From: Staphylospora marina
GTDB lineage: Bacteria; Bacillota; Bacilli; Thermoactinomycetales; Thermoactinomycetaceae
Reading direction: 5' to 3'
Assembly: GCF_003856495.1 (NCBI RefSeq)
Contig: NZ_CP034118.1
Coordinates: forward strand, 2,511,842 to 2,543,841
DNA: 32,000 nt
The position numbers and the translations under genes were made by a program. The notes beneath the pieces were generated by a model. That model did no database searches and had not been told where the DNA came from. It was given only the letters and a program-made list of their open reading frames with translations. Below are positions 28,359-32,000 of this stretch, in pieces. Every line of letters begins with the position of its first letter. Within the stretch, counting starts at the first letter, position 1.

Positions 28359-29558
28359 TCACAGTCCGGCATCGGCTCTGAGGATTTCCGCTTTGTCCGT
28401 GCGTTCCCACGGCAGATCGATGTCGGTGCGTCCGAAGTGTCCGTATGCGGCGGTTTGCCGGTAGATCGGACGGCGCAGGTCCAGGGCACGGATGATGCCG
28501 GCGGGACGCAGGTCGAAGTGTTTTTTCACCAGTTCCACCAGCTTGTCTTCGTTCACTTTGCCGGTACCGAACGTCTCGACGCGGATGGAGACCGGACGGG
28601 CCACTCCGATGGCGTAAGCCAGCTGCACTTCGCATTTGTCGGCAAGACCGGCGGCCACGATGTTCTTGGCGACGTAACGGGCGGCATATGCGGCGGAGCG
28701 GTCCACCTTGGTCGGGTCTTTTCCGGAGAAGGCACCGCCGCCGTGACGGGCGTAACCGCCGTACGTGTCAACAATGATCTTGCGGCCGGTGAGTCCGGCA
28801 TCCCCTTGCGGACCGCCGATCACGAAACGGCCGGTCGGGTTGATGAAGTACTTGGTGTTTTCATCCAGCATGTCGGCCGGCACCACCGGGAGAACCACAT
28901 GTTCCATGACGTCCTTCTTGATTTGCTCCAAGGTGGCGTCTTCGGAATGCTGGGTGGAAACGACGACGGTGTCGATCCGCACCGGTTTGTCTCCCTCGTA
29001 TTCGACCGTCACTTGGGTTTTTCCGTCGGGACGCAGATAACCGATGGTACCGTTCACCCGCACTTCATGCAGACGGCGGGCCAGCTTGTGCGCCAAGGAA
29101 ATCGGCAGCGGCATCAACTCGGGGGTCTCGTTGCACGCGAATCCGAACATGAGCCCCTGGTCGCCGGCTCCGATGGCCTCGATTTCTTCTTCGGTCATTT
29201 GACCTTCCCGTTTCTCCAGGGCCACATCCACGCCCATGGCGATATCCGGCGATTGCTCGTCAATGGAAGTGAGCACGGCGCACGTTTCGGCGTCGAAACC
29301 GTATTTGGCACGGGTATATCCGATTTCGGCAATGGTCTGGCGAACGATTTTCGGAATGTCCACATAGCAGCTGGTGGAGATTTCTCCGGCCACCAGCACC
29401 AGACCGGTGGTCACCGACGTCTCGCAAGCCACACGGGCGTTGGGGTCCTTGGCCAGGATGGCGTCCAGGATGGCGTCGGAAATTTGGTCACAAATTTTGT
29501 CGGGGTGACCCACCGTCACCGATTCGGAAGTAAACAGGCTGCGTTTGTTTTCTGCCAA
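28359..29558 (-). CDS. metK: S-adenosylmethionine synthase
   Basis: 399 aa with the canonical motifs GHPDK, GAGDQG and [12 protein letters not shown] start at 29556-29558 with GGGGGAG 7 nt upstream. Confidence 0.96.
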
Positions 29559-29600
29559 TTTGATTCTCCCCCTCGTCTTTCACAGAGTGGCTTCGGGCAA

Positions 29601-29629
29601 ATAAAAAACCCTTTCCTTCGAGGAAAGGT
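29601..29629 (-). terminator. Leader (attenuator) terminator immediately upstream of the metK RBS
   Basis: Minus strand reads CCTTTCC-tcgaa-GGAAAGG followed by GTTTTTTATTT, about 45 nt before the start codon. Confidence 0.8.
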
Positions 29630-29857
29630 CAGACTGCCCCCAAGTTTCGCCCGACGCCCTCCCCGCATGGCGGACGACCGCGGGAAGTTCGCCGGCGTGG
29701 AAAGGGTTCACCCCTTTCCTTCGAGGAAAGGCGGCGGTTTTTTGAAGGACCGGGCCCTCGAGACTGACGGAGCCGGAAGACCGGTCGGTTCCTTGTCGCT
29801 TTCTTTGAACCTCGCGGCTTTCGGACATTGTTCTTTCTTCAATCAACATATAGAATA
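29630..29857 (-). promoter_or_regulatory. metK 5' leader: structured RNA with alternative pairings; riboswitch class not assignable by eye
   Basis: A possible promoter is TTGTAT (29875-29880), 17-nt spacer, TATTCT (29852-29857). A 20-nt module, CCTTTCCTCGAAGGAAAGGG, occurs at 29712-29731 and again in the terminator at 29609-29628. A 13-bp interrupted helix spans 29654-29698. Confidence 0.55.
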
Positions 29858-29898
29858 ACCCAACGCCCTGTTAAATACAACTGCCCTTTGCATGAAAC

Positions 29899-32000
29899 CT
29901 ATTGCGTTCGACTTGGCAACTTTTTCACCTTCGAATGAAGGAGATACCATCCGCTCACATGGCTTTGCATCCGGATCCGCAAATACCATCGACCGGGCGG
30001 AAGCACGCGGGTCCAAGTGCGCCACTTTCCCGGTGTCAACTCCCCGCTTCCCGAGTCCCGGACGCGAAGCCCGGAATCGTGGAGAGTCCACTCCACATGC
30101 AACCGATGTTCGGACGAAAACAGGCTCCACTCCACCGTGGAGTGCTCAGTCAGTTCCACCACTCCCCAATTCCGGTCAGCGCCCGGATCCACCCGAACGC
30201 GCCACCGACTTCCGTCTTTCAACGTTCGGGCGGCGGATGGCATCTCCCGGCCCGCGAAACCCTCTCCTTCCCCTTCCCGCCGTCGCAAAAAGATCCGGTA
30301 GGGTTCGTCTCCGGAGGCACTCCCGTAGTCCGTCACCCTGAATATCAGCTCTTCCGGATCGGATGCGGAGATGGAGATCTGTTCCGCCTCTCCTTCGTTG
30401 CCCCGGTCCACTTTCCCGCCGGGGATGTTTTTGCCGGGCAACAGGGTGATCACCGGGTCAAACCGCGGAGACAGCGGGCGGACTTCCAGATCGAAACGAC
30501 CGTTTTCCGGAATGCGAACCCGGTACCAATCTTCATCACCGGCCCGGTGCAGGGTCGCTTCCCAAGCGGCGTTTCCGGTCGTCGCGGGCAGATTCCCTGC
30601 TTGCCACGGGGCCTCGTTGGGCTCAAACGGATCGGGCAATAAAGCATATTCCGCCGACAAACGGTACGCCACCGACTTCCTGTTCTCCCGTGCGGAAAGT
30701 CCGATCCGCACCGAACCGGCGGGAACGGTGAGCCGCACGGGCCCGTCAGTCGCCGCTTCCGTCCGTTTCCCGTCCGGGAGAAGCGCCGTGAGGCGGAACT
30801 TTGCGTCACCGCCCGTCACCTTCAGCGTCAGGGTTCCGGGATGCCTGAAGGAAAAACGGTACCAATCGCTGTCTCCCGGTTCCAGCCACCCTTGCAATTC
30901 GTGCGCCGTGGAAACGGGAAAGGCTTCCTGCGGACGGTCATTGGGCTCATAAAGGTCCGGCTTCAATTCTTCCTTCAAAGCCCGTGCGGCATTCACCACT
31001 CCGAACCCCGTCCGTTCATCCCAACGGTCTTCTCCGTTCGGCCGGTCCGCGGTCTGGCAAAGCAGCCGTCGCAATTCGGCCGGTTTCAACGTGGGCTTCG
31101 TTTGCCAGACCATGGCCGCCACACCCGCCACCTGGGGAGCCGCGTAGGACGTGCCGGAATCCATGTCGATGTCTCGAAAGAGACCGGCCGTCTGGATCCA
31201 CTCCCCCGGAGCCGCCAGATCAAGGCCGGGGCCCGCGTTGGACGAAGGCTCATGCGTTCCGTCCATCCGAACGGAGCCGACGGAAAGCACTTCCCCGATG
31301 GCGGCGGGGACATAGAGCGGCCGGTGATAGACGATGTTTCCGTCCGTTCCGTAGACGGCGTTTCCCGCCGCAGCCACGACCAACACGCCGGCGGCTTCCG
31401 CCTCCCGGACCGCTTCCGCCATCAATTCCGACCAAGTCCAGCTCCCCTGCGCAAGGACGATGATGTTCGCCCCCCGCCTCACCGCCTCGCGCATTCCTTC
31501 CACGGTGTGGTAAATCTCTCCGTCATCTCCGTTTTCCATCACTTTCACCGGCATGATCCTGCCGATCTCCTCCGCTTTTTGTCCGGAGAACGCCCCCCAA
31601 ACGGCGGCGATCACACCGGCAACGCCCGTTCCGTGCCCCATTTCGTCCATGGGGGGTTCCTTCTTGTTCCTCACGTTGATTCCCGGAACCAACAAAGGCT
31701 TCAGCACCGGATGGTCGAGGTTCACCCCGGTGTCCACCACCGCCACGATCACCGGCCGCGGAAGGCCGCGGGGATGTCTCTGCGTTTCCGCCAGGCGCCA
31801 TGCCTCTTCCGCCCGGATCCGCTTCAGATAATAAAACGGTTCGGGATGCGGGGAGAGGGAATCCCCGCTCACCTCCCCGAGACGGTGCGGAAAATTGGGA
31901 TGCATGTAACGGGCCCGGGGACTCCATTTCTCCACGAACCGTTCCGTTTCCGTCCCGCTTCTCGGGCGCACCAGCATCACTTCGGAGCCGTCTTGCATCG
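29899..32000 (-). CDS. S8 (subtilisin-like) serine peptidase with C-terminal PPC-type domains; N-terminus lies outside the window
   Basis: Catalytic motifs VVDTGV (Asp), HGTGVAG (His), AAGN (oxyanion) and SGTSYAAPQVAG (Ser). Two EPND/EPNE...DxDWYR repeats are typical of pre-peptidase C-terminal domains. The ORF is open to the window edge and no signal peptide is visible. Confidence 0.85.
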   Translation of the reverse strand, partial: MQDGSEVMLVRPRSGTETERFVEKWSPRARYMHPNFPHRLGEVSGDSLSPHPEPFYYLKRIRAEEAWRLAETQRHPRGLPRPVIVAVVDTGVNLDHPVLKPLLVPGINVRNKKEPPMDEMGHGTGVAGVIAAVWGAFSGQKAEEIGRIMPVKVMENGDDGEIYHTVEGMREAVRRGANIIVLAQGSWTWSELMAEAVREAEAAGVLVVAAAGNAVYGTDGNIVYHRPLYVPAAIGEVLSVGSVRMDGTHEPSSNAGPGLDLAAPGEWIQTAGLFRDIDMDSGTSYAAPQVAGVAAMVWQTKPTLKPAELRRLLCQTADRPNGEDRWDERTGFGVVNAARALKEELKPDLYEPNDRPQEAFPVSTAHELQGWLEPGDSDWYRFSFRHPGTLTLKVTGGDAKFRLTALLPDGKRTEAATDGPVRLTVPAGSVRIGLSARENRKSVAYRLSAEYALLPDPFEPNEAPWQAGNLPATTGNAAWEATLHRAGDEDWYRVRIPENGRFDLEVRPLSPRFDPVITLLPGKNIPGGKVDRGNEGEAEQISISASDPEELIFRVTDYGSASGDEPYRIFLRRREGEGEGFAGREMPSAARTLKDGSRWRVRVDPGADRNWGVVELTEHSTVEWSLFSSEHRLHVEWTLHDSGLRVRDSGSGELTPGKWRTWTRVLPPGRWYLRIRMQSHVSGWYLLHSKVKKLPSRTQ

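Follow-up and report, generated by a model that had tools for sequence, protein, structure and literature searches.

The leader of metK (SAM synthetase) in the window, i.e., the whole 32-kb stretch of DNA that was analysed, raised the question of what a terminator was doing before this gene when no S-box (SAM-I) core could be recognised in front of it. The original prediction had left two answers open: a divergent or new SAM-responsive element, and a protein-dependent attenuator. The region was read here as the metK promoter plus a leader of about 245 nt that descended from a Bacilli S-box metK leader and lost its SAM-binding aptamer, and a probability of roughly 0.75 was given to this reading.

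metK (28359 to 29558, minus strand) was a single-copy gene (one match in the genome of the window) with a TTG start and a 399-aa product containing three S-AdoMet synthetase Pfam domains (E values of 3e-46 to 5e-73). Its Shine-Dalgarno region GAGGGGGAG (29566 to 29574, minus strand), as read from the sequence, lay 7 nt 5′ of the TTG start, and a purine-rich Shine-Dalgarno sequence was found at the same place before metK in the relatives. The leader occupied a 340-nt spacer (29559 to 29898, minus strand) with one terminator-like site. The predicted metK promoter (29852 to 29880, minus strand) was composed of –35 box TTGTAT (29880 to 29875), a 17-nt spacer, and –10 box TATTCT (29857 to 29852), which placed the predicted transcription start near 29847 to 29843; TTGTAA/TTGTAT-17-TATTCT with conserved flanks also stood before metK in the relatives, and a generic promoter scan picked an overlapping weaker site instead of this one. 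Conservation of the –10 box and of roughly 14 bases from the transcription start onward (29838 to 29857 in the window, and likewise in the relatives) far exceeded the needs of a promoter: the first transcribed bases were TATTCTATTGATGATGTAGA in many genera and TATTCTATATGTTGATTGAAG in the window, and AUGAUGUAG, which lay at the predicted 5′ end, would encode Met-Met-stop.

Upstream of metK lay an S8 subtilase gene (29899 to 31998, minus strand; Pfam Peptidase_S8), whose stop codon (29901 to 29899) was 18 nt before the metK –35 box; this tight protease–metK arrangement (29875 to 29901 in the window) recurred in several relatives. The terminator scan gave a single terminator-like site across 29400 to 30100, that is, the protease gene had no terminator of its own, and the metK leader terminator was the first stop signal downstream of it; the upstream gene thus supplied a second reason for this terminator to be kept, which would be the only stop signal for the protease transcript. 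An 89-aa ORF (29580 to 29849, minus strand) started at the predicted transcription start and spanned the whole leader; it was probably a by-product of high G+C content. Attenuation through a leader peptide was rejected: this ORF had no counterpart in the relatives, whose leaders, inspected by eye, ran into a stop after 2 to 10 codons or were open in unrelated frames.

The search with Rfam 15 gave no family at gathering score anywhere in the 32-kb window. Within 29450 to 30000 (551 nt), searched with permissive filters, no SAM, SAH, or T-box family appeared at E≤10, the models of SAM-II, III, IV, V, VI, SAM/SAH, and SAH included, and the only matches at this level were terminator look-alikes. 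The claim that the leader had no recognisable S-box core was thereby borne out, since the Rfam SAM/SAH covariance models returned no RF00162 match even at E≤10 and the negative stood. The same search found six SAM-I elements elsewhere in the genome (66 to 90 bits), so the missing metK aptamer was no failure of the tool; these six preceded genes for an ABC-transporter ATPase, a homocysteine methyltransferase with a pterin-binding domain, an APH-family kinase, a RuBisCO-like protein, and others, and they represented the usual S-box regulon without metK. The one of the six located before the ABC-transporter ATPase gene (G000:C1:2549145-2549264, minus strand) was rather near metK, about 5 kb past the end of the window.

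The search was also applied to the metK loci of 29 relatives covering all seven families of the order: no Rfam match was found within 1.5 kb of metK in these 29 loci, and in 17 of them no SAM-I or other SAM/SAH-class match was found at E≤5. A divergent SAM-I aptamer that fell below the Rfam cut-off and escaped the eye was extremely improbable, given that RF00162 was missing from the 551 nt of this genome and from the 17 loci of its relatives even at these permissive levels, and that in some relatives a mere 36 nt separated the transcription start from the antiterminator strand, which leaves no space for a four-way junction. Three other known systems were considered and rejected: (i) T-box (RF00230), for which no Rfam match was found in the window or the relatives and whose UGGN was absent from the antiterminator bulges of the relatives; (ii) the YezD/DUF2292-linked antiterminator hairpin, whose loop ACCGCA(C/A)ACGGA was not in the leader; and (iii) CsrA binding to the GGA-rich strands. 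DUF2292/YezD and CsrA were excluded because the genome had neither a DUF2292 gene nor csrA.

What the relatives' metK leaders shared was the promoter, followed by 36 to 125 nt that could not be aligned between genera, and then a near-invariant core, which ended about 25 to 60 nt before the metK Shine-Dalgarno sequence. This core displayed the organization YCGAGGR, often a 6- to 9-nt bulge plus AAGG, an A-rich linker, CCUUUCCUCG–loop–GGAAAGG, and a U-run. CGAGGA therein was complementary to UCCUCG, which formed the top of the terminator 5′ arm plus part of the loop, and in transcripts cut before the 3′ arm the minimum free energy (MFE) structure was the antiterminator hairpin in most species. 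The same relation of a P1 3′ strand to a terminator 5′ arm that marks a SAM-I-type platform was found in the window: CGAGGG (29755 to 29760, minus strand; designated the A element, the 5′ strand of the antiterminator) was complementary to UCCUCG in both copies of the terminator 5′ arm (B1 and B2; see below), and it was homologous to the 3′ end of S-box P1 (see below).

A covariance model built from the relatives' cores (R1) matched 22 of the 53 genomes of the order, each of them once and each time immediately 5′ of metK; these 22 genomes belonged to families f1, f5, and f7, harbored the core in a single copy, and had CGAGGR or AGAGGA as the A element. Several other genera of the order showed a decayed core. 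In most relatives, the interval from the U-run to the ribosome-binding site was too short to hold a promoter, and thus metK transcription must pass the terminator there. Two further observations were made on metK loci of the order: (i) in genus g10 (L021), the leader had a terminator remnant CCUUUCC-GCAU-GGAGGGG-U5 followed by about 110 nt with a promoter-like site TTGTTT-17-TATAGA, and metK of this genus may have escaped from the attenuator through a new downstream promoter; and (ii) in both genomes of family f2 (G025:C1:3371079-3372253 and G031:C9:3356643-3357999), metK was matched in two overlapping segments, with TGA or TAG as an internal stop, which suggests a frameshift or split gene, or a sequencing or recoding issue common to the family.

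The sequence comparison was further applied to the pairing within the core. Because MAFFT alignment of all 32 cores misaligned the A element, pair counts were obtained by anchored parsing in scripts instead. The pairs were CGAGG/CCUCG in most genera versus AGAGG/CCUCU in genus g12 and family f10; in g12, the strand AGAGGA faced the partner UCCUCU, a compensatory double change. In the metK DNA tree rooted with f10, g12 was basal in the order and all CGAGG/CCUCG leaders fell in the remainder; with g12 basal and sharing the pairs of f10, the covariation amounted to one event, whose direction was from A-U to C-G. That the covariation consisted of a single compensatory event on the metK tree counted against the reading of S-box descent.

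Between platform-bearing genomes of different genera, the four-fold degenerate sites of metK had a mean identity of 0.33, which is saturation, while the A element and nine bases of the terminator 5′ arm, taken together, had a mean identity of 0.93 in the same genome pairs; the platform was under strong purifying selection. The predicted energies of the antiterminator ranged from –6.4 to –12.4 kcal/mol in the aptamer-less leaders of the order and from –6.5 to –10.8 kcal/mol in SAM-I-bearing f10 leaders, and those of the terminator ranged from –9.3 to –15.1 kcal/mol and from –10.7 to –15.5 kcal/mol, respectively; energies in the same ranges with and without the aptamer argue for a switch that remains in use and against a relic in decay.

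The origin of the core was indicated by family f10, which belongs to a different order. R1 gave three further weak matches (about 35 bits) in a 151-genome sample of the class, all of them in f10 and just 5′ of metK; the f10 homology thus started from weak scores rescued by the position before metK, which was a second point against S-box descent. All 15 f10 genomes were examined at metK, and six of the 15 leaders had a bona fide SAM-I aptamer (61 to 80 bits). The SAM-I match there ended in GAUAAGAG, the 3′ strand of P1, followed by a G, and overlapped the A element; the A element therefore corresponded to the end of P1 together with the start of the S-box antiterminator. Behind GAUAAGAG, these six leaders continued with AGAGGU-AAAGC, after which came GCCUUUCCUCU–loop–GGAAAGGC with a U-run. 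The P1 helix of a SAM-I leader is the anti-antiterminator: once SAM has stabilised it, the antiterminator is blocked and the terminator forms (PMC5602112). The idea that the module represented a new kind of switch was consequently abandoned: it was the S-box metK expression platform, common to the SAM-I-bearing leaders of f10.

Four other f10 leaders (L193, L195, L196, and L198) kept the platform but gave no SAM-I match: in L195 (2751-2816), the aptamer was reduced to CUCUUAU–9 nt–AUAAGAGG followed by an intact S-box terminator; in L198 (2743-2802), the same P1 closed a 17-nt loop, again followed by an intact S-box terminator; and L193 and L196 did not even have the P1 5′ strand. L195 and L198 look like snapshots of aptamer deletion, and the aptamer loss in f10 was a second, separate loss in a different order. 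Seven f10 leaders (L192 and L194 to L199) also harbored a conserved block, approximately GAGTACCGT...ATAGATG.ACATAMTAA, located 20 to 60 nt before the metK Shine-Dalgarno sequence, with or without the aptamer; this block, a possible second promoter or a further RNA element, was missing in the order of the window.

The same comparison bore on the main idea of the original prediction, a new SAM-responsive element, taken here as a small riboswitch for SAM or another metabolite whose pocket would be formed by the core itself, either in the antiterminator helix with its 6- to 9-nt bulge or in a pseudoknot that involves the terminator loop. The core was indeed conserved before a gene that other SAM riboswitch classes control, the antiterminator consisted of two helices split by the bulge in most genera, and the minimal leader of about 70 nt was within the size range of small riboswitches. 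The bulge, however, was unconserved in sequence and missing in genera g14 and g15 and in this genome; the same core stood 3′ of true SAM-I aptamers and can do without a separate ligand there; a ligand stabilising the antiterminator would have the wrong sign for feedback; and no match to SAM-II to SAM-VI or SAM/SAH was found. A small riboswitch of this kind was accordingly judged unlikely.

Returning to the leader in the window, its terminator-like end was found as predicted, a GC-containing hairpin plus U-run at 29628 to 29603. This putative working intrinsic terminator (29603 to 29628, minus strand; copy 2) was composed of B2 CCUUUCCUCG (29628 to 29619), C2 AAGGAAAGGG (29618 to 29609), and U6 (29608 to 29603); the terminator scan gave a stem at 29628 to 29610 with eight pairs and a 3-nt loop, followed by T6 at 29608 to 29603 (activity predicted), and copy 2 matched R1 at 36.3 bits. 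The 20-nt stem-loop CCTTTCCTCGAAGGAAAGGG was present twice, at 29628 to 29609 and 29731 to 29712, with a spacing of 103 nt; the repeat was exact, as the earlier reading had it, and allowing up to two mismatches gave no further copy in the 2.75-Mb genome. Copy 1 (B1/C1; 29712 to 29731, minus strand) had no U-run, and it occupied the ancestral terminator position relative to the antiterminator strand: an R1 match at 23 bits covered copy 1 and the CGAGGG strand (29709 to 29766). With the U-run found only after copy 2, the old antiterminator was uncoupled from the working terminator.

The two copies were separated by an 83-nt insert (29629 to 29711, minus strand), which held B′ AACCCUUUCC (29708 to 29699) and a GC-rich interrupted helix (29698 to 29654). 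The segment CCCUUUCC described as following copy 1 was present, and AACCCTTTCC (29708 to 29699) was complementary at 10 of 10 positions to 29616 to 29607, i.e., the terminator 3′ arm plus the first two U; B′ could pair with C1 or with C2. The expectation that the duplicated module would be conserved in orthologous leaders held in part: the module itself was kept there as a single copy, but the duplication, the 83-nt insert, and the 13-bp helix occurred only in this genome. The 103-nt duplication was seen nowhere else among the relatives and metagenome contigs searched, the insert had no second copy in the genome and was not found in the relatives, and a scan of metagenome contigs for the insert hairpin gave two unrelated matches only. 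Two sources of this arrangement were rejected: (i) tandem duplication with divergence, since the insert and the 83 nt before copy 1 were no more alike than shuffles, and (ii) a mobile element or genome-wide repeat, since module and insert occurred at this locus only.

The predicted fold agreed with the earlier reading at one of two places. The interrupted helix (29654 to 29698) was present in both the MFE and centroid folds; the closing helix AAGGAACCG/CGGUCCUU of the suggested three-way junction was not in the MFE fold, which instead closed this region with GACCGG/CCGGUC (29786 to 29781 and 29753 to 29748) and paired UCUUC (29780 to 29776) with GAGGG (29759 to 29755). The resulting predicted local helix GACCGGUCUUC/GAGGG-C-CCGGUC (29748 to 29786, minus strand; MFE and centroid folds) would sequester the A element, and it had no comparative support. 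The whole leader folded no better than shuffled sequence (z = –1.27), and the support for its elements therefore came from the comparison with relatives rather than from folding energy.

Constrained folding of the 245-nt leader gave three states within 2.2 kcal/mol: (i) the MFE state, with the copy-1 hairpin plus B′:C2 (10 bp; terminator 3′ arm captured), at –98.7 kcal/mol; (ii) the terminator forced, at –96.7 kcal/mol; and (iii) the C1:B′ hairpin forced, at –96.5 kcal/mol, the prediction then including the terminator. Stepwise MFE folding of the growing chain switched back and forth between "A:B1 plus C1:B′" and "B1:C1"; when the 3′ end was at 29611, the MFE structure was the terminator hairpin, and B′:C2 took over from 29605. 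These near-isoenergetic folds and flips during chain growth lend model-based support to the original prediction of a terminator-based switch with mutually exclusive pairings. The terminator stem-loop was duplicated together with the 83-nt insert; the old antiterminator strand faces copy 1, which lacks a U-run, and the working terminator (copy 2) would compete with a new partner, AACCCUUUCC (29708 to 29699), which would hold either the copy-1 3′ arm or the terminator 3′ arm. According to the folding model, pairing of A with B1 would free C1 to capture B′, and the terminator would form; with A held elsewhere, copy 1 would fold on itself and leave B′ free to compete for the terminator 3′ arm. Since the MFE fold holds A in GACCGGUCUUC/GAGGG-C-CCGGUC, the ancestral sign would be inverted in this model; both the sequestration of A and the relay through the insert are thermodynamic predictions.

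In the relatives, with their single core, the platform would work as a transcription attenuator. The antiterminator strand would pair with the terminator 5′ arm as soon as the latter is made, giving read-through; were that strand unavailable, the terminator would form and transcription would stop before metK. The platform kept in the window consisted of the purine strand CGAGGG, formerly the 3′ end of P1 and the putative 5′ strand of the antiterminator, and of the terminator CCUUUCCUCG–loop–GGAAAGG with U6. Without an aptamer, an antiterminator that always formed would leave the terminator with no purpose; that the terminator is conserved therefore implies an input, which was a further point against the reading. 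As a best guess, we infer that read-through is the default and that a trans-acting factor, not a cis aptamer, shifts the balance. The search for the input within the leaders was negative: duplex energies of upstream sequence with the A region were not better than those of shuffles in 22 leaders (z about 0), no conserved ligand-binding structure or shared fold was found upstream of the platform (folds differed between genera and even within one genus), and the A element of genus g14 had no more than 36 bases before it, mostly A-rich. Pairing in trans with the genome's own S-box RNAs was dropped as a candidate, because duplex energies are uninformative in GC-rich RNA without a proper control.

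A factor binding the purine-rich antiterminator strand and so allowing termination might be an RNA-binding protein, the 30S subunit, or a small RNA such as the product of termination at an S-box leader; this proposal was compatible with S-box descent, of which it specifies the missing input. It was put forward tentatively, as a possibility well short of even odds. The core was invariant in sequence and not only in structure, behind 36 to 125 nt of unalignable leader; no cis anti-antiterminator was present; and the purifying selection on the core was strong. Sequence invariance could, however, also come from one strand having two pairing partners, no candidate factor was found with CsrA and DUF2292/YezD absent, and no conserved neighbouring regulator gene was seen. 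With similar reserve, the orphaned S-box platform may still be a working switch answering to an undescribed sensor, either a protein or RNA that acts in trans and reports the SAM or methionine status, or a minimal ligand pocket in the antiterminator.

The platform could instead be an unregulated relic, in which the antiterminator forms by default, with the terminator as a constant partial attenuator, trimming metK expression and terminating the S8 protease transcripts. The aptamer was gone, the A strand was predicted to be free in most relatives, the protease gene had no terminator of its own, and several genera had lost a recognisable core to decay, all of which would fit; yet conservation of the antiterminator strand, with its compensatory change, is not needed for a fixed attenuator, identity over A, B, C, and the U-run was 0.93 against saturated silent sites, and the energy balance was still like that of working riboswitches. 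On these grounds the relic was held to be doubtful.

Riboswitches are usually treated as an aptamer and a platform that evolve together. Here, the platform of an essential gene outlived its aptamer across at least 10 genera and was still under strong selection, and in the same genomes the other genes of the methionine regulon are still served by intact SAM-I switches. The two halves of a riboswitch were thus separated in nature, which raises the question of what has taken over the control of SAM synthetase in this group, and annotation by aptamer models misses such leaders entirely. If a new sensor has indeed taken over, the cis aptamer would have been replaced by a different input across the order with reuse of the old output module, to which the duplication in this genome would add an inverting relay.

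Among known systems, the PyrR, TRAP, LicT/SacY, and HutP attenuators of Bacillus had terminator/antiterminator competition in common with this leader, a resemblance in logic only; in protein-dependent attenuators, a factor binding one strand could make the choice between terminator and antiterminator. Their motifs (RAT hairpin, GAG/UAG repeats, and PyrR loop) were presumably absent in this leader, and we take no such regulator to be linked to the locus. The S-box (SAM-I, RF00162) metK leaders of Bacilli were much closer, with the same gene, the same promoter–leader–terminator layout, and the same platform, in which the antiterminator strand is the P1 3′ end and the terminator is GCCUUUCCUC(U/G)–loop–GGAAAGGC with a U-run; compared to them, the leader in the window had neither the four-way-junction aptamer nor the P1 5′ strand (the anti-antiterminator), and its stem-loop was doubled around the 83-nt insert. 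The aptamer-less f10 leaders resembled the core of this order in carrying AAGAGGU and then GCCUUUCCUCU..GGAAAGG plus a U-run before metK. Unlike this order, two of them had a complete P1 hairpin (9- or 17-nt loop) that would hold the antiterminator strand permanently, and in the aptamer-less f10 leaders 60 to 130 nt with the conserved block, which might be a second promoter, lay between the terminator and metK.
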